A stretch of 41,456 nucleotides of DNA from a virus. The notes under the pieces are model-generated. The model was not told the origin of the DNA. It ran no database searches and saw only the letters and a list, made by a program, of their open reading frames with translations. The DNA is taken from UHGV virus genome UHGV-1460059, one strand, 5' to 3'. A program made the position numbers and the translations under genes. Below are positions 5,656 through 41,456 of the stretch, piece after piece; position 1 is the stretch's first letter; every line of letters starts with the position of its first letter.

Positions 5656-5673
5656 TAACAGATTAATTTTTCA

Positions 5674-7669: not shown

Positions 7670-7920
7670 CCAGCCACAAGCCACGCCGCTGCATTCAGGT
7701 CTGCCGGAGACATCTGGTCGACAGAGCTTTGCGGCACTTTCGCCAGCCGCACAATGTATTTCGACACCACATGCGCCAGAAGTCTGACTGACTCATCCTG
7801 ATTCATCTGGTAGGGATACCCCAGCTCGCGGACATCCTTCCCGGTGGGTTCATCAAACTCCAGTACGGAGAGTGTCTCGCCATGAGCAGTAATCGGTTTC
7901 TTTAACTCAAGCTCTTTCAT
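7651..7920 (-). CDS. Tail assembly chaperone (0-frame product)
   Basis: 89-aa ORF between the tube and tape measure genes. Its 3' end carries a U UUU UUC heptamer (minus-strand complement of 7663-7669) and is overlapped by a -1 frame ORF. Confidence 0.5.
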   Translation of the reverse strand: MKELELKKPITAHGETLSVLEFDEPTGKDVRELGYPYQMNQDESVRLLAHVVSKYIVRLAKVPQSSVDQMSPADLNAAAWLVAGFFLQA

Positions 7921-8276
7921 TACTGGTAATCCCCTTCTTCACCGTGGAACTCAAGATCAACCGTGCCTTCTTCGGCATTATGGTTCGCTTCGCCGTGCAG
8001 CCAGGCAGACGACAGTACATAGACCTGACCGTTCGCCAGCTCGGCAGTGATGGTCATCTCATCAGACGAGGTGATTTTGCTTACCGGAAAATTCTTCGGC
8101 ACCTTGAAGGTCCCTTTGACATAAGGCGCACGGTGAGTTTCCTTGCGGTCCACTGAACCGTCCAGGCCGATGATGTCATCGTTAACCGTTTTGTTCATGG
8201 GCACCTCAATGCCGCCGGTCAGCGATAGCTGCTGACCGTCAATTTTGAAATAACAGGTTCCCCCGATACGGGCCAT
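7920..8276 (-). CDS. Tail tube protein
   Basis: 118-aa ORF directly downstream of the sheath gene with an overlapping stop/start. Confidence 0.6.
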   Translation of the reverse strand: MARIGGTCYFKIDGQQLSLTGGIEVPMNKTVNDDIIGLDGSVDRKETHRAPYVKGTFKVPKNFPVSKITSSDEMTITAELANGQVYVLSSAWLHGEANHNAEEGTVDLEFHGEEGDYQ

Positions 8277-25133: not shown

Positions 25134-25627
25134 TAAGCCCCCACGTAATTCCCTGACAGATACCACTCTTCACCCGATGCAGCGTGCTTGCTGCTTTTCC
25201 GTAAGCACCGCTCACGACGCGCCAGAAAATTGTTTCGTTCTGGCTGGGAGTGGCTTTCACGGAATGCCGCCATCCACACGGTTGCAGCACGACGGTATAA
25301 GCCCCTTGACTCCAGTTCTTCCGCCTGGCGGGTCAGGCACAAAATCACCCGGGGATCGTTAGTGCCGACATAGAAATTGCGCGCAGGTCTGGTTTCACGA
25401 ACTGGTTGTGGTTCCGGCTCCTGCGCTCTCTCAGTCAGGCGCGGGAAATGTCTGCGTGTATCCCCTTCACAACGGTGAGCCACACGCCCACTCTGACGTA
25501 ACTTGCTTGCTGACTGCAGAACGCGCTGCCGTGAGTAACCAGCAAAAGCATCCGCAATGTCTCCGGAAGTACACCCCGGATGGGCTTCAATGAATTTCTG
25601 AACGTCATTTAACAGACTCATGATCAC
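25133..25627 (-). CDS. PerC/ANR-like small regulator (tentative)
   Basis: LTRQAEELESRGLYRRAATVWMAAF resembles the PerC-family signature as recalled. Coupled to the replication gene by an overlapping stop/start. Confidence 0.35.
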   Translation of the reverse strand: MIMSLLNDVQKFIEAHPGCTSGDIADAFAGYSRQRVLQSASKLRQSGRVAHRCEGDTRRHFPRLTERAQEPEPQPVRETRPARNFYVGTNDPRVILCLTRQAEELESRGLYRRAATVWMAAFRESHSQPERNNFLARRERCLRKSSKHAASGEEWYLSGNYVGA

Positions 25628-26565
25628 CCCCTGAATCCTGCCGGGATCTGGCTGTAGTCCACGTTGTCGTAACTGGATTTGAAGTACGGGTCTTCGCGTT
25701 TTTCAGTGTACGTGCTTACGGACGGCGATAAGCGCAGGGAAAGCTCATCCCATTTTTCCCGCAGCTTCGACGGGCTGAGCACGTTACGGCACCAGAACGG
25801 ATCGCGGCTGACGCGGCTGTACATCTCGCAGATTTGTTTGTGAGTACGACCATCCTGCACACACATCAGGCGAATTTCGTTTGCCCAGGCTGTCCAGTTC
25901 GGTTCTTTGGGACGAACCACCTCGCCGTCACATTCGGCGGCCTGCTCGTACAGGGCGATGATTTTTTTCCAGAGCCACTGTGCGCAGGTCAAATCATCCT
26001 GCGTTCCCCACTGGCGCTTTTTAGGGCTGAATACAACCGCATCAGGATGGCGAGTTAAAAAATCCTGTTCATCCGTCTGCGTGTCCGGTTGCGAAGCGTC
26101 CGGACGAGAAGTTTTTTTATCTGACGGATCATGTTTTGATTTTACTGACGGATCCCCGCCAGATTCTGACGGGTGAAAACCCGCTTTTTTGCCAGATTTC
26201 GACGCATCAAATTTTGACGGGTCAGATTTTGATGCGTCAGATTTTGACGGGTCAGAATCTGACAGTTGAGAAAATGCCGCTGCCTGAAGCTTCGCAACGT
26301 TAAGCTGATAAACATTCGACGCATTGCGGTTACCCTGGCGACGCGCCTTACGCGTTAACCAGCCTTCTGCTTCCAGCCGTGCGATAGCCGTTCTGACGGT
26401 ACTCATCCCCGCGCCAATCTGGCGGGCAATGGTTTCAATTGATGGCCAGCACACACCTTCGTCATTACTGAAATCAGCCAGGCGGGCCATAATTGCCACG
26501 CTGGATAATTTCATGCCTGATGCAGCGCAACCATCCCATACATAGCCGGTTAATTTAGTGCTCAT
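25624..26565 (-). CDS. Replication initiator (lambda O analogue) with N-terminal winged HTH
   Basis: 313-aa protein; N-terminal HTH (…SIETIARQIGAGMSTVRTAIARLEAEGWL…); central low-complexity DPSKSDASKSDPSKFDASKS linker encoded by a DNA iteron array. Confidence 0.5.
   Translation of the reverse strand: MSTKLTGYVWDGCAASGMKLSSVAIMARLADFSNDEGVCWPSIETIARQIGAGMSTVRTAIARLEAEGWLTRKARRQGNRNASNVYQLNVAKLQAAAFSQLSDSDPSKSDASKSDPSKFDASKSGKKAGFHPSESGGDPSVKSKHDPSDKKTSRPDASQPDTQTDEQDFLTRHPDAVVFSPKKRQWGTQDDLTCAQWLWKKIIALYEQAAECDGEVVRPKEPNWTAWANEIRLMCVQDGRTHKQICEMYSRVSRDPFWCRNVLSPSKLREKWDELSLRLSPSVSTYTEKREDPYFKSSYDNVDYSQIPAGFRG
26119..26265. repeat. Iteron array (candidate origin of replication) inside the initiator gene
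   Basis: Tandem ~15-bp units TTTTGACGGGTCAGA / TTTTGATGCGTCAGA / TTTTGACGGGTCAGA plus degenerate copies (ATCTGACGGATCATG, TTACTGACGGATCCC, ATTCTGACGGGTGAA), flanked by T-runs. Confidence 0.55.
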
Positions 26566-26913: not shown

Positions 26914-27461
26914 GCGTTAGTTTCTCCACAGTCACGACACGCCACGGCGCCCGGAGCTGCACACTCGCGGGCGTCATTACTTTCTGAAATGCAAAAAATT
27001 TTGTAGACCAGTGCTGCATGCTCCTGCAGCTTCGAAATTGAGAGGTACAGCTCGTCGTTAATTGCTGTCTTCTCATGCGGTTCCACTACACCGTCTTCAA
27101 TTGCTGAACGAATCTGTTTTGAATAACTGCCGATCTGTTCAATGACTTCCAGCAGGCGCTGGTTAATATCGGCGTTGTCCACATCCTCGACGTCAGGAAG
27201 AGACACAAAGACGCCATTTGCAGACTGCGCCACAGCGTCAGCAATGAAGTGAGTTCCACCAGCACGTTGCAAAATCATTGCCCATCCCAGCGGGAAAATC
27301 TGATCGCCATCGGCACGAAGGCGGTTAAATAATGCGTTCTCTGTTACATCCAGCCAGTCAGCAGCTTCAGCGTACCCCCCCGGCAACGCTGCGATAGTTT
27401 TTCTGACAGCTTTCACGTACCACTCAGGCTGTTTTTCTACTTTCCAGTGATGCTTACCCAC
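26910..27461 (-). CDS. CII-like early regulatory protein (tentative)
   Basis: 183-aa ORF immediately downstream of cro, overlapping its stop; Cys-rich C-terminus. Confidence 0.4.
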
Positions 27462-27714
27462 GGTTCACCTCCTGTTCCTGTGGTTTAAACCCATTCTGAT
27501 TTTGGCTAGATTGAAAACGTGCCGGATAAAGAATCTGCATTTCGCTGACTTCACCCTTAAAAAAATTGGCTAAACGTTCTGCAAGCTCGATAGATGGAAT
27601 CTGCTCCAGCCTCTCAATACGACTCAACGTCGCTGGATTGACTTGAACACCCGCAGCAACATGCTGCAAAGTGAAACCATGCGCCTTACGCACATTTCGT
27701 AATGGTGATTGCAT
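27454..27714 (-). CDS. Cro-like HTH (XRE-family) repressor
   Basis: 86-aa HTH protein divergent from cI; GGAGGA 5 nt upstream of the ATG. Confidence 0.6.
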   Translation of the reverse strand: MQSPLRNVRKAHGFTLQHVAAGVQVNPATLSRIERLEQIPSIELAERLANFFKGEVSEMQILYPARFQSSQNQNGFKPQEQEVNRG

Positions 27715-27811
27715 ATGTCCTCCAGATATTGCGCGTTATGCATGTTATTTCACGCAATTATTTTGCGCAAGTTGATTTGCTTATCACGCAATAAAGAAAT
27801 GTAATAAACGC
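27715..27811. promoter_or_regulatory. Divergent cI/cro switch region: operators with PR-like and PRM-like promoters
   Basis: TTGC-N7-GCAA-type sites at 27729-27743 and 27777-27791, plus GCAA-ttatt-TTGC at 27755-27768. Candidate PRM: TTGCTT (27777-27782), 17 nt, TGTAAT (27800-27805), 6 nt to the cI ATG with no SD. Confidence 0.55.
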
Positions 27812-28504
27812 ATGAACATAGGAAACCGAGTCAGACAACTTCGCCAAGCGAAGAACATGAAAATCGCCGATCTCGCTGAAGCAATAGGAGTAGATGCGGC
27901 GAACATCTCGCGCTTAGAAACGGGTAAGCAAAAACAATTTACCGAACAAACACTGAGTAATATTGCCAAGAGCTTAGGTGTTGATATTGCTGATCTCTTT
28001 ACCTCTGCCCACAAAAGTAATACTGTATATAAAAACAGTAATAATGAGGATGTTGCGCAGGTGAAGGATGTGTTCCGTATTGAAATGCTGGATATCAGTG
28101 CCAGTGCGGGAAATGGCCTTATCCAGGGCGGTGATGTCATTGATGTGATTCATGCCATCGAATACAGAACTGATAATGCTGTATCAATGTTCGGCGGACG
28201 ACCAGCCAATCACATCAAAGTTATCAACGTTCGTGGGGACAGTATGTGTCCAACCATTGAGCCAGGAGATCTCATCTTCGTTGATGTCAGCATCAATCAG
28301 TTTGATGGTGATGGTATATATGTCTTTGGTTTTGATGACAAAATATACGTTAAAAGACTTCAAATGATTCCTGACAAACTGCTGGTGATTTCTGATAACC
28401 AGATTTACCGTGAATGGGGAATTACTAGCGAAAACGAACACCGATTCATGGTCTTTGGAAAGGTCTTAATCAGTCAGTCGCAAACCCTTAAGAGACATAA
28501 TTAA
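27812..28504 (+). CDS. cI: CI-type repressor (HTH + S24 LexA-like autopeptidase domain)
   Basis: N-terminal XRE-type HTH; C-terminal GDSMCPT (Ser) and VKRL (Lys) peptidase S24 motifs. Confidence 0.85.
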   Translation: MNIGNRVRQLRQAKNMKIADLAEAIGVDAANISRLETGKQKQFTEQTLSNIAKSLGVDIADLFTSAHKSNTVYKNSNNEDVAQVKDVFRIEMLDISASAGNGLIQGGDVIDVIHAIEYRTDNAVSMFGGRPANHIKVINVRGDSMCPTIEPGDLIFVDVSINQFDGDGIYVFGFDDKIYVKRLQMIPDKLLVISDNQIYREWGITSENEHRFMVFGKVLISQSQTLKRHN

Positions 28505-28558: not shown

Positions 28559-28595
28559 TTGCATATTTCGCAAAAATAACTTGCATATATCGCAA
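28559..28595. promoter_or_regulatory. Second operator cluster (OL-like) with a candidate leftward early promoter
   Basis: Two copies of TTGCATAT(T/A)TCGCAA (28559-28573, 28581-28595), the same half-site family as the cI/cro operators. Possible -35 TTGCAT (28581-28586) and -10 TATCTT (28604-28609). Confidence 0.4.
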
Positions 28596-28843: not shown

Positions 28844-29050
28844 ATGCACAAAACAGAACCCAAAATCGTCGCGCCTGGCTACACAGATGAGGAAATTTAT
28901 GAGTGGATGACAAAGAAGCTGGCAGCTATAAACCAGCTTCGTGAAGTGCTGTCTTATCGACAGGAAACAATAGACTCCTTAAAAAAACTGGATCAGGAAA
29001 TCACGGTTTTATCACAGGATGTTACTTTAGATATTGTGCAGACAAATTAG
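28844..29050 (+). CDS. Hypothetical small protein (68 aa), first gene after the OL-like region
   Basis: ATG at 28844 with GAGGAG 7 nt upstream (MHKTEPKIVAPGYTDEEIYEWMTKKL…). 3' end overlaps a convergent gene. Confidence 0.35.
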   Translation: MHKTEPKIVAPGYTDEEIYEWMTKKLAAINQLREVLSYRQETIDSLKKLDQEITVLSQDVTLDIVQTN

Positions 29051-29456
29051 GATCCCATTCATTTTCGTCAAAATCATCAAAGTGATGAATTTGTGATCTC
29101 CAGTCTCGATAATCTAAAAATTTCTGGGCGGTTACGCTTATTTTATCAAGTGTGAGTTCATCCTGAATTGAAAGAAGAAGTTCATCAAATTTCATCTCAT
29201 TAATCTGTTTTGGCATCCAGTGATGCTTCATCAGAATAAGGTGAACCAGAGCCTTTTTCCCATTCAACTGATTATAGGGAGTGCCGAATTTCTTCCGGTG
29301 CTCATGTAAGACAAGGTCCAAAAGAGTAAGTAATGTTGCCCTTGATTCAACTTTGCTTATTTCGACTGATGACACTACCCCACTGATTTCAATGCCCCGA
29401 TACTTTCCAACATTTTCACAGTGGGATTTGTACAGCGTATAGATATTACCGGACAT
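29022..29456 (-). CDS. Hypothetical protein (144 aa), AT-rich, in the immunity region
   Basis: Long ORF in AT-rich DNA with AAGGA-like SD; no recognised motif. Tandem direct repeats lie in its upstream region. Confidence 0.45.
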   Translation of the reverse strand: MSGNIYTLYKSHCENVGKYRGIEISGVVSSVEISKVESRATLLTLLDLVLHEHRKKFGTPYNQLNGKKALVHLILMKHHWMPKQINEMKFDELLLSIQDELTLDKISVTAQKFLDYRDWRSQIHHFDDFDENEWDPNLSAQYLK

Positions 29457-29471
29457 TTCTTTTCCTTTTGC

Positions 29472-29523
29472 GTTGTTGGGGATAACCAGATTAACCGAAT
29501 CCTTGTTGTTGGGGAATAACCAG
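29472..29523. repeat. Tandem direct repeat upstream of the 144-aa gene (candidate regulator binding sites)
   Basis: gttgttggggataaccag (29472-29489) and gttgttggggaataaccag (29505-29523), about 33 bp centre to centre. Confidence 0.5.
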
Positions 29524-29597
29524 GTCCACCTCGCCTGATGTGGCTAAAAGCAGGCACATAACAGCTAAGTATTTTCAACCAGAGAGAATCCTTAGCG

Positions 29598-29876
29598 TTG
29601 TGGTGAATGCGGCTCAGCGCACGCGGGTTAAGGTTGAGGCTGACAGTCGACCTTCTGTGGATACCCACCCGCCTGGTGTGCAACCTTCGCCAGGCACCGG
29701 GAGGCACCCGGCACCACAACTTTATGCTGTGTGTAGTCCTGGCGGTACCAGCTTGTACCCTTGCTTCCGGCTGGTACCGTCCTTTTTACAAAACAGAGAA
29801 GAGCATCACCGGACGACGGGCTCATAACCCAATCCATCCGGGCGGCAGTCACCGCAGGTGTTCTTCTCTGTTTTGT
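29598..29876. other. GC-rich, ORF-poor, hairpin-dense non-coding element (candidate structured RNA or recombination/regulatory site)
   Basis: Perfect 15-bp inverted repeat 29788-29802 / 29862-29876; 9-10-bp IR 29744-29752 / 29770-29778; GCCTGG/CCAGGC 29671-29695; CCGGG/CCCGG 29697-29711; long-range TTGTGGTG/CACCACAA 29598-29605 / 29712-29719. All frames give Arg/Pro/Gly-rich non-protein-like ORFs. Confidence 0.4.
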
Positions 29877-29924
29877 GGAGAAACTAACCGACCTTGCAGG
29901 GTCGATATGATGAGGAGCAGCAAA

Positions 29925-30287
29925 ATGGCTAGCGAACGCAGTACTGATGTGCAGGCATTTATCGGGGAGCTGGACGGCGGCGTATTTGAAACCAAAATCG
30001 GCGCAGTTCTCAGTGAAGTCGCTTCCGGTGTGATGAACACGAAAACCAAAGGTAAGGTCTCGCTCAACCTGGAAATCGAACCGTTTGATGAGAACCGTGT
30101 GAAAATCAAACACAAACTCTCATATGTTCGCCCAACTAACCGCGGGAAAATTTCCGAAGAAGACACCACCGAAACGCCGATGTATGTCAATCGCGGTGGT
30201 CGCCTGACTATTCTGCAGGAAGACCAGGGACAATTACTGACTCTTGCCGGTGAACCTGACGGAAAACTCCGCGCAGCAGGTCGTTAA
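29925..30287 (+). CDS. yfdP: YfdP-like prophage protein
   Basis: ATG at 29925 with GAGGAG 7 nt upstream gives 120 aa. Size and the following gene neighbours match the K-12 CPS-53 yfdP-yfdQ-yfdR block as recalled. Confidence 0.45.
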   Translation: MASERSTDVQAFIGELDGGVFETKIGAVLSEVASGVMNTKTKGKVSLNLEIEPFDENRVKIKHKLSYVRPTNRGKISEEDTTETPMYVNRGGRLTILQEDQGQLLTLAGEPDGKLRAAGR

Positions 30288-30352
30288 TATCGTTCGTAAT
30301 AAACTGATTATTTATCTCATCACTGAATATCTTTATATAGTGAGGACTTATT

Positions 30353-31177
30353 ATGTCTCAGAACTTAGACGCAACCGCAATTAATCAAATCCATGCCCTT
30401 ATTTCTGCTCAGGGTGTTAATGAAATTATCAGTAAGATTGGTGCCGATGCTGTGGCATTGCCTGAGAATTTCCGCATTCATGATCTGGAAAAATTTAATT
30501 TAAATCGCTTCCGTTTCCGTGGTGCACTTTCCACTGCCAGCATCGATGATTTTACCCGTTATTCTAAAGATCTTGCAGATGAAGGCACCCGCTGCTTTAT
30601 CGATGCCGATAATATGCGTGCCGTCAGTGTGCTTAACCTGGGTACTATTGATGAGCCAGGTCACGCAGATAACACTGCCACTCTCAAACTGAAAAAGACA
30701 GCACCGTTCTCTGCTCTGTTGTCTGTTAACGGCGAGCGTAACTCCCAGAAGTCACTGGCAGAATGGATCGAAGACTGGGCCGACTACCTTGTGGGCTTTG
30801 ATGCTAATGGTGACACCATTCAGGCAACAAAAGCGGCTGCGGCGGTCCGTAAAATCACGATTGAAGCAAACCAGACTGCTGATTTTGAAGATAATGACTT
30901 CAGCGGCAAACGCTCCCTGATGGAGTCTGTCGAAGCGAAGACCAAAGACATTATGCCAGTGGCATTTGAGTTTAAATGCGTTCCGTTTGAAGGTCTGAAA
31001 GAACGTCCGTTTAAATTACGCCTCAGCATTATCACTGGCGATCGTCCTGTACTGGTTCTGCGCATTATTCAGCTGGAAGCGGTGCAGGAAGATATGGCTA
31101 ACGAATTTCGTGATCTGCTTGTTGAGAAATTCAAGGACAGCAAAGTAGAAACCTTTATTGGGACTTTCACCGCCTGA
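30353..31177 (+). CDS. yfdQ: YfdQ-like (DUF2303-type) prophage protein
   Basis: 274 aa, the same length as YfdQ, with the conserved neighbour order. Confidence 0.55.
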
Positions 31178-31188
31178 TTTCATTACTG

Positions 31189-31212
31189 CAAATGCCCCTG
31201 CGGGGGCATTTA
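31189..31212 (+). other. Perfect hairpin between the yfdQ-like and yfdR-like genes
   Basis: aaatgcccc-tgc-gggggcattt (9-bp stem, 3-nt loop), not followed by a U-tract. Confidence 0.35.
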
Positions 31213-31305
31213 TGGAAACGTAATTGACTCAATAATCGCCTGAAGGCGAGGGTTTTCTTTAACCAAAATTCAGCGCGGTGCAGCGCATATAACGTGGAGA
31301 ACAAA

Positions 31306-31830
31306 ATGTCATTTATTAAAACTTTTTCCGGGAAACATTTTTATTATGACAGGATAAATAAAGACAACATCGATATTAACGATATCGCGGTTTCCCTTTC
31401 AAATATCTGTCGCTTTGCCGGCCATCTTTCACACTTCTACAGCGTCGCCCAACATGCGGTGCTTTGCAGCCAGCTGGTACCGCAGGAATTTGCTTTTGAA
31501 GCGTTAATGCATGATGCAACAGAAGCGTATTGCCAGGACATCCCGGCTCCACTGAAACGCCTTCTTCCTGACTATAAACGGATGGAAGAAAAAATAGACG
31601 CCGTAATCCGTGAGAAATACGGGTTACCCCCGGTTATGAGTACGCCCGTGAAATATGCCGATCTCATCATGCTGGCAACCGAACGCCGCGATCTCGGGCT
31701 TGATGATGGCTCTTTCTGGCCCGTACTGGAAGGTATCCCGGCAACAGAGATGTTCAAAGTTATTCCACTGTCGCCAGGCCATACCTATGGGATGTTTATG
31801 GAACGCTTTAAAGAGTTAACTGAGTCGTAA
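31306..31830 (+). CDS. yfdR: HD-domain phosphohydrolase, YfdR-like 5'-deoxynucleotidase
   Basis: HD motif (…EALMHDATEAY…) with upstream His (SVAQHAVL). ATG at 31306 has GGAGA upstream; the GTG at 31294 would give 178 aa. Confidence 0.65.
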   Translation: MSFIKTFSGKHFYYDRINKDNIDINDIAVSLSNICRFAGHLSHFYSVAQHAVLCSQLVPQEFAFEALMHDATEAYCQDIPAPLKRLLPDYKRMEEKIDAVIREKYGLPPVMSTPVKYADLIMLATERRDLGLDDGSFWPVLEGIPATEMFKVIPLSPGHTYGMFMERFKELTES

Positions 31831-31938: not shown

Positions 31939-32805
31939 ATGAATCAAAATCCATTCTCATTCTATGACTTTCTTGGATATTTAATACCAGGTGGTTTTTT
32001 TATCCTATTAATGTATTTCTGTGGTTTGACATTCGATCTAGATATTGTTATTGACTTAAGTGAATTGCTCAGAGGTCAAAGTCAAATCTTTGGCATTTTG
32101 AACTACGCTTCAATAGTTATTATATCTTATATAGCTGGACATTTTATTTCTATCACGTCAGCATTTTTTATCGAAAAATACATGAATAAAGAATTAGGAT
32201 ATCCTTCCAAATATCTATTTAAAAAATTGATAGATACCTCAGAAAGCATTTGTAGCCCATCATGCGATGAGAGAAGCGCTGATAAAAAAACAAAAATAAA
32301 GAATCGCATAATCAAATGCGTATTATGCCCAATAATACTATGGGATTTTATAACACAAAAACTATGTTATTCTCAATCTCTACCATTTCATTTAGCTAAT
32401 ACAACATGGTTAATGATCAAAGAAGGTTATGAGAAAAAGTTCATAACAAATCGCCAATTATTACAAGATAAAAACGGACTTGATGATGATCTCTTCAGAT
32501 TGGCATATCATTATGTTTATGAGTTTTCAAAACAACATCAAACAAAAATTCAAAACTATGTTGCATTATATGGTTTTTGCAGAAACATATGTTTAATCTT
32601 TATAATTTCATTTTGGGTATCAGTTCCAACCTTTATTTATCGATTATGTACTCATAGTGATTATCTTTATAGTTTACTTTCAATAATGCTTAGCTTTTTC
32701 TTCGTCTATGTTTTCTATGTTGGTTTTGTTAAATTTTATAGAAGATATACTTTAGAAGTATTAATGGCATTTGCTGTACTTCAAAGTAACGACACTATTC
32801 GTTAA
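31939..32805 (+). CDS. Polytopic membrane protein, very AT-rich (accessory gene upstream of xis/int)
   Basis: ATG at 31939 with GGAGAG upstream. Several hydrophobic segments (LGYLIPGGFFILLMYFCGL; IFGILNYASIVIISYIAGHFISI; ICLIFIISFWVSVPTFIY; LLSIMLSFFFVYVFYVGFV). GC content is far below the flanking phage genes. Confidence 0.45.
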   Translation: MNQNPFSFYDFLGYLIPGGFFILLMYFCGLTFDLDIVIDLSELLRGQSQIFGILNYASIVIISYIAGHFISITSAFFIEKYMNKELGYPSKYLFKKLIDTSESICSPSCDERSADKKTKIKNRIIKCVLCPIILWDFITQKLCYSQSLPFHLANTTWLMIKEGYEKKFITNRQLLQDKNGLDDDLFRLAYHYVYEFSKQHQTKIQNYVALYGFCRNICLIFIISFWVSVPTFIYRLCTHSDYLYSLLSIMLSFFFVYVFYVGFVKFYRRYTLEVLMAFAVLQSNDTIR

Positions 32806-32846: not shown

Positions 32847-33053
32847 ATGCTGAACCTCGATTGTGTTCCTATCTCAACTTATTGCAAAGAAACTGGCGAA
32901 ACTCCTGAAGCAATAAACAAACGTGTACAGCGCGGTGTTTGGCGTGAAGGTGTTCAGGTTTTAAAGGTTGAAGGCGTTAAGGAGAGGTGGATTGATCTTA
33001 GTGAGGTTGCAAAATGGGCCAGACAAAACTGCTCAAACTACCGCGCGGCGTAA
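32847..33053 (+). CDS. Excisionase-like small DNA-binding protein
   Basis: 68-aa basic protein whose 3' end overlaps the int start by 40 nt. ATG at 32847 has GGAG upstream; the alternative start is 32835. Confidence 0.45.
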   Translation: MLNLDCVPISTYCKETGETPEAINKRVQRGVWREGVQVLKVEGVKERWIDLSEVAKWARQNCSNYRAA

Positions 33054-34186
33054 CAATCAGGAAACACCGCCAGGGAGAAACGATCAATATAACTTTCACC
33101 TACAAAGGAGTTAGATGTCGTGAGCCGCTTTCCAATCTGGAAGTAACACCAAAGAACATTAAATACGCCGAGCGTACACTCGGCGAAATCCATAATAAGA
33201 TCGAAAGGGGAACATTCATTTATGCAGAATATTTTCCCCGTTCTGCTCGTTTGAAAATTTTTGGTAATGCTGCTGCAGGCAAAACGGTAAAGATGTACCT
33301 GGACGAATATCTTGAAATCTGCGAAACAAGAAAACTTTCACCCTCTACGATTGGTGGCTATAAAAAATGCCGTAGTGCGTTAGCCTCACTTCACATTTGC
33401 CCTGCAAGTGAATTAACACCAGCAACCCTGAAAGCGTGGATTCAAAATCAGAAAACGACCTTAAAAACAATTCGCAACCAGTTATCTTTCCTGCGGTCAG
33501 CACTTGATGAAGCCGTGACCGATGGGGTACTTCAAATTAACCCCGTATCGTTAGTAACAGCTTCGCGCTACCAAAGTGATAAGTCAGAAGCAGAAAGCAG
33601 CTACGTAGTTGATCCGCTATCACCAGCAGAAGTTGATGCATTACTAGCAGCAGCCGGAAACAAACAATGGGAAAATCTGTTCCGGTTCGCTATACATACA
33701 GGCCTGCGTAGTTCTGAATTATGTGCCCTTCGATGGCGTGATATCGACTTTGTTGGAAAAACTGCCCATGTCCAGAGCGCAAGTGTTGTCGGTGTTATCA
33801 AAGGGACAAAGACAAAAGCAGGTACTCGGAAAGTTGAACTGACAGAAGAGGCAATGTTGGCGCTGATAAATCAGAAGCCATTTACATTCATGAAGGATAC
33901 TACTGTCTTTGAAGATCCAAAGACCAATAAGCCTTGGGCAAGTGCTGATGCAATCAGGAAAAAAGCATGGGTGCCAACATTGCGAAAAGCAGGTATTCGT
34001 TACAGAAATCCATATCAAACTAGGCATACATTCGCCACCCGCCATATCAGCCGGGGAGCAAACCTGTTTTGGCTTGCAGCTCAAATGGGGCATAAAGGGC
34101 CGGAAATGTTATTTCGTCATTATGGTTCATATTTAAAGGAATATGACGGTAATACGACCAGCAATATCACAAAAAAAGCCACTTAA
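33014..34186 (+). CDS. Tyrosine integrase (lambda-type, with arm-binding N-terminal domain)
   Basis: 390 aa; C-terminal catalytic signature including …HTFATRHISRGANLFWLAAQMGHKGPEMLFRHYGSYL… (R, HxxR, Y). Confidence 0.9.
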   Translation: MGQTKLLKLPRGVTIRKHRQGETINITFTYKGVRCREPLSNLEVTPKNIKYAERTLGEIHNKIERGTFIYAEYFPRSARLKIFGNAAAGKTVKMYLDEYLEICETRKLSPSTIGGYKKCRSALASLHICPASELTPATLKAWIQNQKTTLKTIRNQLSFLRSALDEAVTDGVLQINPVSLVTASRYQSDKSEAESSYVVDPLSPAEVDALLAAAGNKQWENLFRFAIHTGLRSSELCALRWRDIDFVGKTAHVQSASVVGVIKGTKTKAGTRKVELTEEAMLALINQKPFTFMKDTTVFEDPKTNKPWASADAIRKKAWVPTLRKAGIRYRNPYQTRHTFATRHISRGANLFWLAAQMGHKGPEMLFRHYGSYLKEYDGNTTSNITKKAT

Positions 34187-34199: not shown

Positions 34200-34583
34200 T
34201 TAGGAGGCTCTCGATTTAAGCATTTCCGTACACTTAGCAAAGAGCCTCTCAGTTGTTAGAATCGCAACTTCAGACTGTTTAGAAGTGACCGATTGATCAA
34301 GTCGATAGTCTGCAACAATCCTCTGAGCTTTAAGTTGACTCAGGATAAAACTAATCCCTTTTAGATATCTAGCTTCATATACTTCACTTCCTCTTGAAGC
34401 ATCGCCCTGCAAATAATTGATTAGCCCCTGATGACTGTCTTTCGGCCCGTTTACCATACAAGGCAAGACATGATGGTAAGCGCCATAGTAGGATCTTGCT
34501 ATAGCATTTCGATAGCCGATTTCGTCATTACGTTGATGACAGTCTTTTGCAAAACCGAGAAAATCTTGACTATTAACCGGCAT
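34200..34583 (-). CDS. Hypothetical protein with R-x6-H motif (HEPN-like candidate), distal gene of the int-att operon
   Basis: ATG at 34583 with GGAGGG 7 nt upstream; 127 aa; motif RSYYGAYHH; 11-nt overlap with the upstream gene. Confidence 0.4.
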   Translation of the reverse strand: MPVNSQDFLGFAKDCHQRNDEIGYRNAIARSYYGAYHHVLPCMVNGPKDSHQGLINYLQGDASRGSEVYEARYLKGISFILSQLKAQRIVADYRLDQSVTSKQSEVAILTTERLFAKCTEMLKSRAS

Positions 34584-35388
34584 GTGCAACCCTCCGGGTA
34601 ATCAGACCTAATTCGGAGATAGCATTCTGCTCAATATGTGTGTCTTTACATTCAAACCAAACAGCAAAATCTTTACCGACTAAACAATCGTGCTCAGCCA
34701 TTGAAAAAGCAAGCTCAATATTCATATCAGCGATTTGTTCAGCATCAGAAGACTTTGTCATGAATACAATCGCATTCACTTTCTCTTCCGAAATATTATA
34801 AAAACGCATTCCCGAAAGATGAACCTTCTGAGAATCCATGACATTGGCTACATTATTGAAAATAAGTTCATATTCTAAACCAGAAAGATCGGCACGTTGC
34901 TTAAAGGATTCGACCTGGGAAACAACTTCATCAAAATTGTTGTCCATTTTTTCAGGCTCCTTATCTCCGAACAATTTAGAGTATGACTGGAAATACTTCT
35001 CCGCCAACGCCATCTTCCCCATAAAGAGGGAGTTTTCATAAGCTTGAAGATAAATAAACGGGGATATGAAGCTTTCAGCAAGCTTAATGCTTGTTTCAAA
35101 GCTTTTCTTCAACGTACCGTAATCTGACAAGAAAACAAGAAAATTCTTTGCAACAACCTCATTATGGCATACCTGCAAGGAACGCTCAAAGAAGCCTATC
35201 GCCTCATTCACTTGGCCATGTGCACCATAGACCAACGCTAAAAGATAGTCCTCAGAGACAGGATCTCTAAGTGCTTCAATCTCACGTAACATCCTTCTAA
35301 AGCTAAAGTCATCAATCCTCACTCCATCTTTGAGGTATTTAGTTAGCCGCGCGCTAATAACTGATGCTTTTTTTGCTGGCTGCAACAT
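34573..35388 (-). CDS. Hypothetical protein (271 aa), AT-rich, first gene of the int-att operon
   Basis: Long ORF in AT-rich DNA; helical-repeat-like N-terminal half; no recognised catalytic motif. Confidence 0.45.
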   Translation of the reverse strand: MLQPAKKASVISARLTKYLKDGVRIDDFSFRRMLREIEALRDPVSEDYLLALVYGAHGQVNEAIGFFERSLQVCHNEVVAKNFLVFLSDYGTLKKSFETSIKLAESFISPFIYLQAYENSLFMGKMALAEKYFQSYSKLFGDKEPEKMDNNFDEVVSQVESFKQRADLSGLEYELIFNNVANVMDSQKVHLSGMRFYNISEEKVNAIVFMTKSSDAEQIADMNIELAFSMAEHDCLVGKDFAVWFECKDTHIEQNAISELGLITRRVAHAG

Positions 35389-35815
35389 TAAAAACCTTAT
35401 CTTACAAATAGTTGGTAATGATGTTGAATTATTTTTTGTTCTTTATGGCTAATAAGATTACATGAAGGGACAACTTCTGACCACCTTAGAAAACACTCAC
35501 TTTAGTAACAAGAGTCAATAATATTGTTGACAAATCACAAAAAAACAAACTTATCCAAAACAATCTGGTTTATCACAAAGCCTCTGTGCATAAATCTGTG
35601 CATAACATCATTTTTACACACATTTTTTTATAAAAATATTTTTTAGCAAAAAATGCTATCTATCTCCGAAACTGCAACCACAAACCATTAATTCCAAATG
35701 AAACTATTTTAAAATAAATAGTAAGACAGTAACAGGACAGAAAAAGTTCCGCAAAAGAGCCGCTTGTAAAATCAACAATATTTGGCTATTTAAATTCAAT
35801 GAATTACATAACTAT

Positions 35816-35847
35816 GGACACGGGTTCAACTCCCGCCAGCTCCACCA
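35816..35847 (+). other. ssrA (tmRNA) 3'-end-like fragment: attachment-site core / junction between two integrative elements
   Basis: GGACACGGGTTCAACTCCCGCCAGCTCCACCA matches the recalled E. coli tmRNA 3' terminus with one mismatch. Upstream sequence is AT-rich and unlike ssrA, so only the terminal ~32 nt are present. Confidence 0.6.
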
Positions 35848-36012
35848 CTTTTTAGTTGTTTGAAGTTCAATGAAGTCTACTAAGCCCACACAGCACAAGC
35901 TCTGCGGGCTTTTTTACGTCTATTGTCGTCCAGTGAGAATTGCTGAGAACTACGAGTTATGGCACCCTGAATGGGACCCACTAAGAAGGGTCCAAAAACC
36001 GAGGGTCCCAAA

Positions 36013-37242
36013 ATGGCAAAAATCGCTAAGAAGCTCACTGACACTGAAATCAAAAGCACCAAGCCAGCCGATAAAGAAATCAACTTGTTTGACGGTGATG
36101 GTCTGATTCTACGAATCGCTCCTTTGGCGAAAGGAGGCAAGAAAAATTGGTATTTCAGGTATGCAGTACCAGTGAGCAAGAAAAGAACCAAAATGAGCCT
36201 TGGGACATATCCTCACCTTACCCTTGCAAGAGCCAGAGCCTTACGTGATGAATATCTCTCCTTTCTGGCAAATGGTGTTGATCCCCAAATCCATAACAAC
36301 GATAAGGCGAAGGCATTAAAGAGTGCTACTGAGCACACTCTCCAAGCCGTAGCGCGGAAATGGTTAGATGAGAAGGTAAAGACATCAGGTATCTCACAAG
36401 ACCATGCAGCAGACATCTGGCGCAGCTTAGAGAGAAATGTCTTTCCCGGTCTGGGTAATGTCCCTATCAATGAGATCCGACCTAAGCTCTTAAAACAACA
36501 CCTTGATCCTATTGAGCAACGAGGCGTATTGGAAACTCTACGCCGTATCATTTCACGTCTGAATGAAATCTTCCGGTGGGCAGCTACTGAAGAACTTATT
36601 GAGTTCAACCCGGCTGACAACCTTGGTCAAAGATTCAGTAAACCAAAAAAGCAAAATATGCCTGCCCTTCCCCCAAGCGAATTGCCAAGGTTTATGGAAT
36701 CTTTGACGAATGCGTCAATCCGGTTGGAAACACGTATGCTAATTGAATGGCAATTGTTGACATGGGTTCGTCCGGGTGAAGCCGTTCGCGCAAGGTGGTC
36801 TGATATTGATACAACCAACAGCATTTGGAACATTCCTGCTGATTTCATGAAAATGAAAAAGCTTCACAAAGTTCCTTTGAGTAAAGAAGCTTTGCGCATC
36901 CTTGAATTAATGAAATCAATAAGTGGGCATAGAGAATGGGTTTTCCCCAGCATAAAAGCGCCTCTTAATCATATGCATGAACAAACAGCCAACGCAGCTA
37001 TCATCCGAATGGGGTTCGGAGGCGAGCTTGTAGCTCACGGTATGCGTTCTATTGCACGAACAGCGGCAGAGGAGTCTGGTAAATTCAGAGCTGAAGTTCT
37101 TGAGGCAGCGCTTGCCCACTCGAAAAAAGATGAAATTATCGCAGCATACAATCGTGCAGAATATCTGATAGAGCGACAGAGTTTGATGCAATGGTGGAGT
37201 GATTACGTTCAAGCTCAAAGATCAAATGCTCTGGTAGCCTAA
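36013..37242 (+). CDS. P4-type tyrosine integrase (IntA-like)
   Basis: ATG at 36013 with GAGGG upstream. N-terminus MAKIAKKLTDTEIKSTKPADKEINLFDGDGLILRI… is typical of P4-family integrases; lies ~165 bp downstream of the ssrA-like fragment. Confidence 0.85.
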   Translation: MAKIAKKLTDTEIKSTKPADKEINLFDGDGLILRIAPLAKGGKKNWYFRYAVPVSKKRTKMSLGTYPHLTLARARALRDEYLSFLANGVDPQIHNNDKAKALKSATEHTLQAVARKWLDEKVKTSGISQDHAADIWRSLERNVFPGLGNVPINEIRPKLLKQHLDPIEQRGVLETLRRIISRLNEIFRWAATEELIEFNPADNLGQRFSKPKKQNMPALPPSELPRFMESLTNASIRLETRMLIEWQLLTWVRPGEAVRARWSDIDTTNSIWNIPADFMKMKKLHKVPLSKEALRILELMKSISGHREWVFPSIKAPLNHMHEQTANAAIIRMGFGGELVAHGMRSIARTAAEESGKFRAEVLEAALAHSKKDEIIAAYNRAEYLIERQSLMQWWSDYVQAQRSNALVA

Positions 37243-37280
37243 GTATCAGAATAGCTAATATAATCCTGAAGGTAAAGAAA

Positions 37281-37697
37281 ATGGAAACCCTATTCAAAGT
37301 TTTTGAAAAATTTAGTTCCAGACCACTTTTTTTTATTTTTTTCGGACTCTCACTTTGTGAATTTTTTCAGAAACAATCTGTTCTGATGAATCCATCAGCA
37401 GATAACATCGCGAAATTATTCGCAGCCATGATATTAGTTGTTTTTTTTACTTGGGGATTTGAATGGCTAATCTTCAAGTTCAATGTAAACCTTGAACCTC
37501 ATGATCAAGGCGATATTGGACCAACAATTGGAACGGCTACTTTAGCTGTATACTTAGTTTATGCCTTTCACTTTCTCAGTGAAAATCCTGAAGCATTAAA
37601 TTTAAAGTTATTAACTAACTCTGGCTTTATATACAGCACAACTCTATTATTATTCTCATTAGAATGCATGAAGCTTAGAAGACTTAAACAAAAATAA
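37281..37697 (+). CDS. Small membrane protein (138 aa), AT-rich island cargo
   Basis: Hydrophobic segments (PLFFIFFGLSLCEFF; LFAAMILVVFFTWGFEWLIF; TIGTATLAVYLVYAFHFL; FIYSTTLLLFSL). Confidence 0.4.
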   Translation: METLFKVFEKFSSRPLFFIFFGLSLCEFFQKQSVLMNPSADNIAKLFAAMILVVFFTWGFEWLIFKFNVNLEPHDQGDIGPTIGTATLAVYLVYAFHFLSENPEALNLKLLTNSGFIYSTTLLLFSLECMKLRRLKQK

Positions 37698-37728
37698 ACA
37701 ACATCATTGTGATGATAAATATAAAATA

Positions 37729-37755
37729 GGCATGGCGAAAAAAAATCACCACGCC
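37729..37755. terminator. Imperfect hairpin between convergent genes (candidate terminator)
   Basis: ggcatggcga-aaaaaaa-tcaccacgcc (8 of 10 pairs); U-rich on the minus strand after the stem. Confidence 0.35.
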
Positions 37756-37768
37756 TAAAATATAATAA

Positions 37769-39517
37769 TTATGGTAGCATCATTGATACATAATCCACAC
37801 CAATCCTTGAGCTATACTGAGACGCTATAGCCTGATATCTTTCTGCATAACCAGTTCTCAGTTGAGATTTAAGTTTGAGTCGGACAGGAACATTTTGCAC
37901 GTTGCCATCCATATTACTTAAAAACACGGCAGAAATAATATTTTTTTCTTCGCCATCAACTGTTGTTCCATGATTCAACACCACCATATAATCAACAACA
38001 GGAAGCGTTTTATCCCCTTCGAAAATAGAGAGATATTTTCTTTGATTTTTATGCATTACATATATATATTTCGAATGTTCAGCAAATGGCAATGCTTTAC
38101 TCTGACTGGCGTTAAAAAGCTCCAGAACTTTAATGAGCCTGTGCGGACTTAATCTTACATGGTGAGGGTCGTTACCCTGAGTAGGAACCAAATCACATGC
38201 CGCAGATACACATAAATACCATTTGTTCGACTCTGTATCAAAGAAAATAGTGCCAGTAGAAATATGACCATCTTCAAAATTCTTTGAAGACAAATTCATA
38301 TTTAAAGCATGATACATTTCGTGATAAGTATCATTATTTGATGGCAGATCCATTTTTGAAGAGCAATATTGGAGCAATGCAGCAACTCCGCTGTTAGCGT
38401 ATTCATTTGAATAGCTATCAAAAACACTTTTGATAAATTCATCCAGCGTATTATTATTTTTAAGTCTTTGATAAAGCTCTTCTGATAAATTACCAAATAC
38501 AAAGTCAATATTTCTACATCTAATATCAGGCGAGTCTGATTTTAATATCTCATTTAACCACGCAGCTTGACCGTAATGATCGTTAGCAAAATGATTTACA
38601 AAAGATAAAGCCTCAGCTTCGATTGCATTCTGAATTTCAGATTTTATTAACTGATAATAAGATGGTTTCCATTCAATGAGAGAATCATTGAGAGTTTGCC
38701 AAATCCTATCTCCATCGTTTTCATGATCATCTTGAACCTTATGAAATAGGGAGACAAAGATATTACCACATTGAATCCATTTTACTCCGCTTTCATCACC
38801 CCGAATGACATTGCCAGATGTGTTGCTAGAAATAATTGCATTTCTAGACACAGCATATTCTGCAATCATTTTTGCAATGAAGTTTTTATCCTTTTGATCC
38901 TCCAACACAGCATCATCATGTATTAATCTTTTAATTCTTCTACAAGGCTTACTGTCTTTAATATAGGCTATTGTTTCATCTCTTGTGAGAGCTTTATTAC
39001 CATTATCATTTAAGTTCGGTAATACAACGTCTTCCCAATAACTTTGGACATCTTCATTATCGTAGTCAATGATCAAGCTGTTGATATCCAGAGCACCTTT
39101 GAGAGTCGATGATATCTGCATCCAAACCGTTTCTAAATTCTCTCTAGTATATATTACAATCATATTTAAATGATCGGAGTCTTTCAAATCTTGTAATAGT
39201 TTAAGTGTTTTATCAGGTGCATTATTATCAAGATGATAATCTACAATAATAAGATCTGATTTTCTAATCCGATCCACATCGAAATTAACAGAACCATTGT
39301 CAACATCACAAATCATATTTTTAGATTGAAAAAAGCTCTCAAGAGTAGCGGCTCGTTTAGATGAGTCAATTTTGTTGTAGTCTAAATCAACTTCGTTATT
39401 CAACGCCCTGATTGATTCAGAATACGTCAGAAAATCGTCATCAATCATGACAACGGAACGAATTGCATTTTCGCAGAAAGTTTTCTGGACAAGAGAATTA
39501 TAATTTGCCACTGTCAT
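37769..39517 (-). CDS. Receiver (REC)-domain protein with ~450-aa uncharacterised C-terminal domain
   Basis: N-terminal REC-like signature: VVMIDDDF (acidic pocket), LIIVDYHL (phospho-acceptor Asp), NMIVIYT (Thr). Start preferred at ATG 39517, 1 nt after the upstream stop; ATG 39535 is the alternative. Very AT-rich. Confidence 0.5.
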   Translation of the reverse strand: MTVANYNSLVQKTFCENAIRSVVMIDDDFLTYSESIRALNNEVDLDYNKIDSSKRAATLESFFQSKNMICDVDNGSVNFDVDRIRKSDLIIVDYHLDNNAPDKTLKLLQDLKDSDHLNMIVIYTRENLETVWMQISSTLKGALDINSLIIDYDNEDVQSYWEDVVLPNLNDNGNKALTRDETIAYIKDSKPCRRIKRLIHDDAVLEDQKDKNFIAKMIAEYAVSRNAIISSNTSGNVIRGDESGVKWIQCGNIFVSLFHKVQDDHENDGDRIWQTLNDSLIEWKPSYYQLIKSEIQNAIEAEALSFVNHFANDHYGQAAWLNEILKSDSPDIRCRNIDFVFGNLSEELYQRLKNNNTLDEFIKSVFDSYSNEYANSGVAALLQYCSSKMDLPSNNDTYHEMYHALNMNLSSKNFEDGHISTGTIFFDTESNKWYLCVSAACDLVPTQGNDPHHVRLSPHRLIKVLELFNASQSKALPFAEHSKYIYVMHKNQRKYLSIFEGDKTLPVVDYMVVLNHGTTVDGEEKNIISAVFLSNMDGNVQNVPVRLKLKSQLRTGYAERYQAIASQYSSRIGVDYVSMMLP

Positions 39518-39518
39518 A

Positions 39519-41237
39519 TTAGAACTCCACTTCATTGAACTGGATCACAAAATTAGCGCCATCTTTTATTAAATAGTTATCGCCTTCATCAGGTTCTGAA
39601 TACCATATTTTATGATGTGCAACAGCAAGGTTTTCTCGACATAGATACAGACCTACCCCATGTCCATTTGCTCTTTTGCTATAAAATAGTTCAAATAGTC
39701 GCGGGATATCATCGGTATCAATTGCCGGACCAGAATTTGCTATGATAACCAAAGAATTCACAAAACCAATCTTTATGAGCCTATTATTTGACAGACTGAC
39801 CCAATACATTGCATTGTTGATAATATTAGTAAAAACAGGATAGATCCTTGATGGTATATCTGTTATTGCGATTTGCTTAAACTCTTCACTAAATTCAATA
39901 GTTATTCGTTGCCGTTCGAAACGCTCCCCAAAGAACTTCAGGACATAATCCATGATATTTTTTCCAGTTATTCTCTGCCTGGATTGATAACCTGATATTT
40001 TCAAAGGTGATAAGAAACGTATTTGTTGAGTAAGCGATCTGTGAGCATTTAACGCCAATGAAAAACCAGGGTGTTCTTTTACAGAAGTAGGAAGAGAGTT
40101 TAGTCCTCTGGTTACCATAGAATCCATTTCTTCAAGTTCATGAGATATTATCTCAACACTAATACCTAACTGTGCAAGCGCGTTTAAACTTTTAGCTTTT
40201 TCTTCAAAATATGAGCGTTCTTCTTCAGATAATGAGAATGCTGAATCTAAGTTTATACCTTCAAATAATCTATCGAGACCTTTTATTATTGATTGATATT
40301 TGAAAGTTAGGGTATCAACTGACTCAACATATAAACTATCGAGCAAATTAAACACATTTTCAATTTGTGAATCATTATCTATTGAATCAACAACTGATAT
40401 AGTTTTAGCATAATAATCACTTCGATCAACCTTTATTTCATCGGCCCATTTTTTTAAAAGAGAATGTATCTTCTCCTCTATCGTGTTATTAAACTTAGTT
40501 AGTTTAGAATTAATAATACCTTGATTTTTTTCAAGGTGATTTTTCGCTGACAATGAAGGCTCAAGTTTATTTAATTCAGAATCAAGTTTATTAATTGCTA
40601 ACTTCATTTGTAGAATATACGCAGAGAACTCATTAAATTTATCTCTGTAGTCTCTATATTTCTCTTCATACATTCCAAGTTTTGGAGGTTTGATAGGCGT
40701 TTTAATTTCACTGCGCAACGCATCTAAGTTTGTAAGATCACTGTCTATAATTTTAAGATAGTTTAAATCTAACGAACCATCAGTTTTATCAAGCTTAGTT
40801 TTCAGCCTTTTAACAGCCTCCAAGGAAGCATCAAGAACTGGTGTCTGATTCTTCAAAGCTTCTGAAAAACTTTTTTGTGTTGATTTTCGAGCTTGTTGTT
40901 GAGCAGATTTTCTTAACTCTTTTTCACGCTTAACTTGTTCTAAAAGCTCTTTACGGTCATCAGAACGTGAACCAAAAAATCTATCAGCAAGTTCAGTTAA
41001 CAAATTAGATATAATAGTTTTCAGTTCTCTTGCAGCCTGGTTTCTTATGAATCCCTCTCTCCCCGACTTATCTTTCAGCTCTTTATTACTGGATTGAGTA
41101 ATTCCAATATAACCAAAAATCCTTCTATTAGACCAATAATATCGCCCTGCATTCCATGAACGTCTTTCTTCTATCTGGAAGAAATCATTATCTACTCGAC
41201 CATAAGGTAATACTCTCAAGCTATCCCTAAAAATCAT
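39519..41237 (-). CDS. Soluble histidine-kinase-like protein (coiled-coil N-terminal region + HisKA/HATPase-like C-terminus), apparently 5'-truncated
   Basis: H-box-like ISHELEEM, N-box NIINNAMYW, G1 NSGPAID, G2 GHGVGLYLC; no TM segments. The reading frame stays open upstream of the first ATG to 41363 inside the IS end, with no start codon. Confidence 0.5.
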   Translation of the reverse strand: MIFRDSLRVLPYGRVDNDFFQIEERRSWNAGRYYWSNRRIFGYIGITQSSNKELKDKSGREGFIRNQAARELKTIISNLLTELADRFFGSRSDDRKELLEQVKREKELRKSAQQQARKSTQKSFSEALKNQTPVLDASLEAVKRLKTKLDKTDGSLDLNYLKIIDSDLTNLDALRSEIKTPIKPPKLGMYEEKYRDYRDKFNEFSAYILQMKLAINKLDSELNKLEPSLSAKNHLEKNQGIINSKLTKFNNTIEEKIHSLLKKWADEIKVDRSDYYAKTISVVDSIDNDSQIENVFNLLDSLYVESVDTLTFKYQSIIKGLDRLFEGINLDSAFSLSEEERSYFEEKAKSLNALAQLGISVEIISHELEEMDSMVTRGLNSLPTSVKEHPGFSLALNAHRSLTQQIRFLSPLKISGYQSRQRITGKNIMDYVLKFFGERFERQRITIEFSEEFKQIAITDIPSRIYPVFTNIINNAMYWVSLSNNRLIKIGFVNSLVIIANSGPAIDTDDIPRLFELFYSKRANGHGVGLYLCRENLAVAHHKIWYSEPDEGDNYLIKDGANFVIQFNEVEF

Positions 41238-41358
41238 TAGTCCTGCATACTTTTTGGCCTTAAGATCAAAGTGGGAATGTTCACGTTCAGTATGTGATGT
41301 ATTTTGTGAAAGGAATTCAAACGTTCCTATCTGAAGCTCAAATGGGCCGACCCCTGCG

Positions 41359-41456
41359 TGATCCTACCCACGTAATATGGACACAGGCCTAAGCGAGGTT
41401 CTTGTTTTCAAATTGTTCCGGACTGAGGCCGCCACACCAACTGTGCCGCCGCCACC
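41359..41456 (-). mobile_element. IS3-family insertion sequence, terminal ~100 bp (inverted repeat plus 3' end of the transposase gene), continuing beyond the window
   Basis: Terminus TGATCCTACCCACGTAATATGGACACAGGCC. Minus-strand translation of 41454..41387 gives …WRRHSWCGGLSPEQFENKNLA*, the conserved C-terminus of IS3-family OrfB. Matches the IS3 right end as recalled. Confidence 0.7.

Follow-up and report, generated by a model that had tools for sequence, protein, structure and literature searches.

The known yfdP-yfdQ-yfdR block of SfV/CPS-53-type Escherichia coli prophages in virus genome UHGV-1460059

What does a three-gene early block contribute to a temperate phage, when a tested function exists for its third gene only? 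The question is raised by the UHGV virus genome UHGV-1460059, whose 41,456-nt sequence is here called the window, and which carries three consecutive plus-strand genes at positions 29925-31830. An original prediction, made from the sequence alone, had likened these genes to yfdP, yfdQ, and yfdR of the CPS-53 (KpLE1) prophage of E. coli K-12, with the third encoding an HD-domain 5'-deoxynucleotidase that might, with two partners, deplete deoxynucleoside monophosphates (dNMPs) or degrade signaling nucleotides. The trio is the known yfdP-yfdQ-yfdR block of SfV/CPS-53-type E. coli prophages, so the identification is correct but not new, the genes being already named in RefSeq. Its coding content is as follows.

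29925-30287, plus strand: yfdP, 120 amino acids (aa), directly 5' of yfdQ
30353-31177, plus strand: yfdQ, 274 aa, DUF2303 family
31306-31830, plus strand: yfdR, 174 aa, HD-domain phosphohydrolase (a longer open reading frame, ORF, is called from 31294)

The ATG at 31306 is most likely the yfdR start, because it is preceded by GGAG and is used by the Prokaryotic Genome Annotation Pipeline (PGAP), and because the GTG at 31294 lies inside that ribosome-binding site.

Identity and distribution of the block

To place the three genes, their products were compared, protein by protein in BLASTP, with the CPS-53 proteins translated from K-12 MG1655 (NC_000913.3). YfdP is identical to its K-12 counterpart at 118 of 120 positions (98%, E 5e-89), YfdQ at 272 of 274 (99%), and YfdR at 164 of 173 (95%, E 2e-129), with 9 of the 173 aligned YfdR residues differing. 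The alignments thus bore out the predicted match in gene order and size; the spacers are also alike, and the HD residues are identical. Homology with CPS-53 at the nucleotide level runs from ∼12 nt 5' of the yfdP ATG to the yfdR stop codon. The codons that differ from K-12 are mostly synonymous (synonymous/non-synonymous: 5/2 in yfdP, 14/2 in yfdQ, and 24/9 in yfdR), which indicates that all three genes are under purifying selection and are not chance ORFs. Moreover, PGAP labels the identical stretch of strain 1500 yfdP, yfdQ, and yfdR, and the RefSeq product name for the last is 5'-deoxynucleotidase.

The block is common. Of 5426 complete E. coli genomes, 3031 were matched by a 2.5-kb query over it, and in 2079 the match covered 80% or more of the query. 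The query also matched 58 phage records, which include SfV, SfIV, Kati, and Stx2c phages. A scan of viral contigs returned near-identical E. coli contigs only, and the matches of one further homologue search were confined to Enterobacterales. The cluster corresponds to orf30-32 of SfV and gp32-34 of SfIV, and it is also present in ST64B, LLS, and Stx2c phages, with 97% DNA identity over the trio together with the non-coding leader that precedes yfdP. In SfV/SfIV-type phages, it is placed between cI and xis/int, as it is in the window, where the predicted early-operon position was confirmed: the trio lies 3' of a cI-like repressor gene and operator repeats, and 5' of xis and int. Such clusters have been described as common in lambdoid early-left operons (PMC12315714).

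Two differences from these relatives concern what surrounds the trio. CPS-53 is a remnant that is without the structured leader and has its replication gene cut down to yfdO, whereas the prophage in the window looks complete. Further, CPS-53 carries yfdS, yfdT, and torI 3' of the trio, and SfV, SfIV, and Kati likewise keep yfdS/yfdT-type genes after yfdR; the window is without them and has a low-GC membrane ORF in their place.

An invariant YfdP-YfdQ pair and a separable neighbor

The original prediction treated the block as an enzyme with two partners. We examined this grouping in 69 species-level loci that contain a YfdQ homologue, by searching their ORFs with YfdP and YfdQ profiles and with the YfdR sequence. 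YfdP lies directly 5' of YfdQ in all 68 testable loci, at a spacing of -13 to 192 nt, and among the loci that bear the pair are those of Limnohabitans, Hydrogenophaga, Methylibium, Alcanivorax, and Pseudomonas, whose YfdQ proteins show 40-46% identity. YfdR, on the other hand, is immediately 3' of YfdQ in 47 of the 69 loci, 0.6-1.2 kb further downstream in 7, and absent from 14 despite at least 1.5 kb of flanking sequence. The pair is also found in the Pseudomonas phages PG1 and LPPA56, the latter with a YfbR-like HD gene one gene later, and in the Xanthomonas phages CP2 and Usme, where it is followed by a DUF1351-like protein, Erf, an exonuclease, and a single-stranded DNA-binding protein (SSB), without an HD gene. 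In CP2 (2639-8241), the pair heads an operon in which the DUF1351-like protein has 511 aa and which also contains an endonuclease. YfdR homologues, for their part, occur in 333 phage records, many of them of virulent or jumbo phages (Caulobacter, Bacillus, Stenotrophomonas, and Xanthomonas phages), and these include unrelated phages without YfdP or YfdQ. Because the YfdP-YfdQ linkage is unbroken, whereas YfdR is displaced or absent in part of the loci and occurs alone elsewhere, we describe the trio as an invariant YfdP-YfdQ pair plus a frequent, separable HD neighbor. The view of YfdP and YfdQ as partners of the enzyme is thereby reversed: it is YfdR that is dispensable.

The spacer between yfdQ and yfdR marks the junction of the two modules with a pair of hairpins.

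31190-31211, plus strand: first hairpin of the yfdQ-yfdR spacer
31236-31249, plus strand: second hairpin of the yfdQ-yfdR spacer, terminator-like

The stem of the second hairpin is TCGCC/GGCGA here and TCACC/GGTGA in K-12, a compensatory change that suggests that this hairpin is functional.

YfdQ is a full-length member of DUF2303 (Pfam PF10065), scoring 309.9 bits against a cut-off of 26.6 over residues 7-272, in a family that comprises 1792 clusters at 50% identity. Comparison of YfdQ with solved folds gave no informative match. YfdP falls in phrog_204 (E 1e-49), and, at ∼120 aa and directly 5' of a DUF2303 gene, it has the size and position that characterize the YfdP family. YfdP homologues carry Pfam PF27127, a model that was not in the Pfam set used for the window proteins, hence the lack of a Pfam match for YfdP itself. 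In PHROG, phrog_204 and phrog_210 are neighboring numbers, and phrog_318, to which YfdR belongs, is a higher one; if these numbers follow family size, this would agree with a co-occurrence of YfdP and YfdQ.

A profile search of PDB sequences retrieved a deposited YfdQ homologue, chain C of 9O7M ("YfdQ Protein", 274 aa), which aligns with YfdQ of the window over its full length (E 3.5e-44; ∼40% identity, as counted by hand from the printed alignment). Its sequence is 98.8% identical to a gene product of Xanthomonas phage MET23-P3 and 93-96% identical to those of CP2 and Usme. Like yfdQ of the window, its gene encodes a DUF2303 protein and follows a YfdP homologue; unlike the window, the source phage type has the Erf-exonuclease-SSB module and is without an HD gene. 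YfdQ accounts for 36 chains of the entry, among the sequences of which no homologue of YfdP or YfdR was found. From the chain count of this one entry, we infer that the YfdQ family may build large homo-oligomers. Our literature search found no paper for 9O7M or for any DUF2303 structure, and the PDB sequence search returned no homologue of YfdP or of the gene 3' of yfdQ in CP2.

These data bear on the proposal that the trio is not a functional unit at all, with (i) YfdP-YfdQ acting autonomously, as a YfdQ oligomer on a target other than DnaA, and (ii) YfdR being a neighbor through lambdoid early-left mosaicism. The 68/68 linkage of the pair, the absence of YfdR from 14 and its displacement in 7 of the 69 loci, the pair without an HD gene in CP2 and Usme, the terminator-like hairpins between yfdQ and yfdR, and the composition of 9O7M would all be expected under such autonomy. 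However, YfdR does follow the pair in 54 of 68 species-level loci, and distant prophages and phages of Pseudomonas again have the order P-Q-(x)-R, which is more than one would expect of mosaicism by chance. Furthermore, yfdQ and yfdR of K-12 are both genetically required for one phenotype (PMC4776307). We therefore consider full autonomy of the pair a doubtful explanation.

Another possibility is that YfdP-YfdQ, with or without YfdR, forms an unrecognized recombination or DNA-repair module that replaces Red, RecET, or Erf. The prophage has no recognizable recombinase, and the CP2 pair adjoins Erf, exonuclease, and SSB genes. However, Erf is itself present beside the pair in that phage; in a Limnohabitans locus, a RecT-like gene that scores 23.0 bits with the Pfam RecT model (cut-off, 24) lies upstream; and the cluster coexists with a complete Rec module in ArgO145, whose authors judge a recombinase role unlikely (PMC12315714). 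Nor was a single-strand annealing protein, nuclease, or oligonucleotide-binding (OB) fold detected in the proteins, which are mildly acidic (isoelectric points, pI, of 5.0-5.9). Given this coexistence with RecT-like, Erf, and full Rec modules, a hidden recombinase role was rejected, and we regard it as very improbable. A DNA-mimic function was also considered and set aside, the three proteins being merely mildly acidic.

More speculatively, and with the odds well against it, YfdP-YfdQ could constitute an obligate two-protein system of an undescribed kind, in which a large YfdQ homo-oligomer and YfdP would together target the machinery of host replication or DNA handling early in infection. Such a system would be conserved between lambdoid phages of enterobacteria and phages of Pseudomonas and Xanthomonas, and YfdR would be an optional addition to it.

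YfdR as an HD-domain enzyme and as a ligand of DnaA

The HD motif predicted for the third gene is intact, with none of the catalytic residues lost. YfdR contains H50, H69-D70, and D119, in the metal-binding H...HD...D arrangement of the HD-domain phosphohydrolase superfamily, and this tetrad is nearly invariant across the YfdR family. Its E73 and D78 align with the catalytic E72 and D77 of YfbR, the chromosomally encoded E. coli HD-domain 5'-deoxyribonucleotidase (dCMP phosphohydrolase). YfdR and YfbR are both small members of one superfamily and can be aligned at the HD, E, and D residues in and near the motif; their likeness is only local (33% identity over 40 residues), and YfbR is a housekeeping gene, unlike the prophage gene yfdR. 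The closest solved relative of YfdR is the uncharacterized HD protein Atu1052 (PDB 2GZ4, E 3e-12), with which all the HD residues are aligned.

The more specific name, 5'-deoxynucleotidase, stood in part. It agrees with the RefSeq product name and with assays of K-12 YfdR; however, YfdR scores below the cut-off of the YfbR-type Pfam model PF12917 (24.4 against 25.9 bits, with 65 residues covered) and far below that of the NCBIfam equivalog NF003009 (20 against 122 bits). The name therefore rests on the K-12 YfdR assays and not on family membership.

Is YfdR, then, primarily a nucleotide-pool enzyme, a 5'-(deoxy)nucleoside monophosphatase that reshapes the dNMP pool in lytic growth, with an incidental DnaA binding and an unrelated YfdP-YfdQ pair? 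This is the main rival to the reading that we favor below, because YfdR homologues are widespread outside enterobacterial phages, including the unrelated virulent and jumbo phages that have neither YfdP nor YfdQ. All of its metal-binding and acid/base residues are conserved; it matches phrog_318, annotated as deoxyribonucleoside 5' monophosphate phosphatase, with an E of 1e-106; and phosphatase activity on nucleotides has been reported for the K-12 protein. On the other hand, the nucleotide affinity of K-12 YfdR is reportedly far below that of YfbR and its function is called "elusive", as Zimmerman 2008 is cited in PMC4776307; a yfdR deletion gave no rise in CMP yield in an engineered strain; and YfdR remains under the curated YfbR-family thresholds. 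By our reasoning, the destruction of dNMPs is also hard to square with a temperate phage that leaves the host DNA intact. Taken together, we think it unlikely that the nucleotide pool is the primary business of this protein.

Far less probable is that the HD enzyme counters immunity by degrading signaling nucleotides (cyclic oligonucleotides, cCMP/cUMP, or gcADPR), or that it serves a prophage defense. Early-left operons often carry anti-defense genes, and some HD-domain proteins are cyclic-nucleotide phosphodiesterases, which lends the idea a general plausibility and nothing beyond it. YfdP, YfdQ, and YfdR have no match in PADLOC-DB at E values up to 0.01; the nearest relatives of YfdR are HD proteins of the mononucleotide phosphatase type (YfbR-like and Atu1052) and not of the HD-GYP or other phosphodiesterase clades; and our literature search turned up no support. 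A defense or anti-defense role of the trio was rejected for want of PADLOC matches. The predicted depletion of dNMPs or breakdown of signaling nucleotides thus went unsupported, and the mechanistic literature points elsewhere, namely to DnaA binding and inhibition of initiation at oriC.

According to Noguchi and Katayama (2016; PMC4776307), K-12 yfdQ and yfdR in multicopy, together with either yfdS or yfdT, suppressed over-initiation mutants and blocked initiation both in vitro and in cells of the wild type. In the same study (PMC4776307), yfdP was not needed for the block, and purified YfdR bound domain I of DnaA in a Phe46-dependent manner, moderately inhibiting DiaA-DnaA and DnaB-DnaA binding; its authors, who name the SfV homologues, propose a shut-off of host replication in favor of replication of the ancestral phage. 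In later work, YfdR is treated as a prophage protein that competes with DnaB for domain I of DnaA (PMC12122000). It shares this target with SirA of B. subtilis and Dps of E. coli, and it resembles lambda P in being of phage origin and in damping host initiation (PMC4776307). However, none of these three has sequence or fold kinship to YfdR, which has an enzyme fold and a moderate effect, seen on over-expression only.

We favor, at a probability of roughly 45%, the reading that the cassette is an early-left accessory unit that damps host oriC initiation through YfdR and DnaA. On this model, (i) loss of the repressor would allow transcription from the left promoter to pass through the highly structured leader and express the cassette; (ii) YfdR would bind DnaA domain I at its Phe46 surface, in competition with DiaA and the DnaB helicase; (iii) new rounds from oriC would be damped at a time when phage replication proceeds from the O-like initiator of the phage itself; and (iv) YfdQ would contribute to the initiation block. 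A weak dNMP phosphatase activity of YfdR would be its second, and possibly ancestral, activity. The DnaA binding and inhibition on which this model draws were demonstrated by others, for K-12 proteins that are 95-99% identical to those of the window and under over-expression only; our analysis adds the gene identity, catalytic residues, context, and linkage. That the cassette acts during natural induction, and that it does so here with neither YfdS nor YfdT, we infer.

Several observations weigh against this model. K-12 yfdQR alone gave no suppression, yfdS or yfdT being required in addition (PMC4776307), and a tblastn search of the window with the K-12 proteins, at E values up to 1, found neither YfdS nor YfdT, so the yfdQRST set is incomplete here. 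The K-12 effects were obtained in multicopy only, initiation showed no phenotype when the genes were deleted, and an over-expression artefact is conceded as possible by the authors; in their pull-downs, moreover, YfdQ, YfdS, and YfdT had no strong affinity for YfdR or DnaA (PMC4776307). Finally, the 333 phage records with YfdR homologues include virulent and jumbo phages of other hosts, in which conservation of the protein cannot be explained by an interaction specific to E. coli DnaA; this argues that catalysis is the conserved primary function of YfdR.

Prophage setting and significance

The early region around the cassette contains the following features.

27454-27714, minus strand: cro-like gene, facing the cI-like gene
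27812-28504, plus strand: cI-like repressor gene (helix-turn-helix and S24 peptidase)
28559-28595, plus strand: operator-like repeats TTGCATAT[T/A]TCGCAA, two perfect copies (28559 and 28581), just 3' of the cI-like terminator
29567-29790, plus strand: STnc100/PasD-like RNA, with a terminator-like hairpin at 29743-29779 and then a T run
29788-29876, plus strand: long hairpin with 25-nt arms, between the small-RNA-like element and yfdP
31939-32805, plus strand: membrane ORF, 288 aa, multi-pass, ∼32% GC, in the yfdS/yfdT place; not part of the trio, in the same direction
32847-34186, plus strand: excisionase and integrase (phrog_2917; Pfam Arm-DNA-bind_2 and Phage_integrase; PGAP), closing the early-left arm

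The repeats at 28559-28595 probably represent the left operator together with the early-left promoter region, and the related TTGC/GCAA half-sites in the cI-cro spacer (27720-27795) probably the right operator, as judged from their sequence and placement. After the repeats, the plus-strand order is a 68-aa ORF, an antisense ECs1072 gene, a 470-nt non-coding leader, yfdP-yfdQ-yfdR, the membrane ORF, xis, and int. The ECs1072-family gene, a phage-associated gene of 144 aa (29022-29456, minus strand), has its own terminator-like hairpins on that strand at 28940-28915 and 28785-28766.

The leader is strongly structured, its stretch 29560-29925 folding at -162 kcal/mol (z -7.5). It matches the Rfam STnc100 model RF02076 over the full length of the model at 42.4 bits (E 1.8e-7), below the gathering score of 47; accordingly, it gave no hit in a gathering-threshold scan. 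The STnc100-like stretch is missing from K-12 CPS-53, and no match at the gathering score was found 5' of yfdP in 16 other genera, which indicates that the cassette does not have this RNA as a conserved partner. In the leader (29457-29924), PGAP annotates a frameshifted pseudogene, and in some phage records yfdP is made 106 codons longer so as to span it.

The membrane ORF at 31939-32805 matches phrog_12528 and, weakly, the PADLOC model of Csx27 (E 1.4e-5), an accessory protein of type VI-B CRISPR systems. Only 205 of the 5426 E. coli genomes carry this ORF, which resembles a moron with a possible role in exclusion or abortive infection.

The window also encodes a terminase, portal, major head protein, tail sheath, tape measure, baseplate, and an O-like initiator, so the prophage is apparently a complete one of the SfV-like myovirus type, with the cassette in its native early-left position between the cI-like repressor gene and xis/int. 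The O-like replication initiator (25624-26565, minus strand, 313 aa) is 99% identical to K-12 YfdO over its C-terminal 122 residues; K-12 yfdO is therefore a 3' remnant of this O-like initiator gene. Beyond the integrase, the stretch 34200-41456 (GC 32-44%) contains, besides several hypothetical genes, a second gene with an integrase domain and one with a response-regulator receiver domain, and is probably a separate island beside the prophage attachment site.

In summary, our analysis adds to a known locus (i) its two-module anatomy, (ii) a YfdQ structure for which no paper was located, (iii) the absence of yfdS and yfdT, and (iv) a structured STnc100-like leader. These additions do not make the cassette surprising to a specialist, and the finding matters little in itself, the genes being named, common in E. 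coli, and studied. What retains interest is, first, the role of the YfdP-YfdQ pair, which temperate phages of Proteobacteria carry very widely, and, second, whether the inhibition of DnaA by YfdR is a real phage shut-off of host replication or an over-expression artefact. The window is no more testable than other intact prophages; being intact, unlike the K-12 remnant, the prophage described here is suited to both questions.

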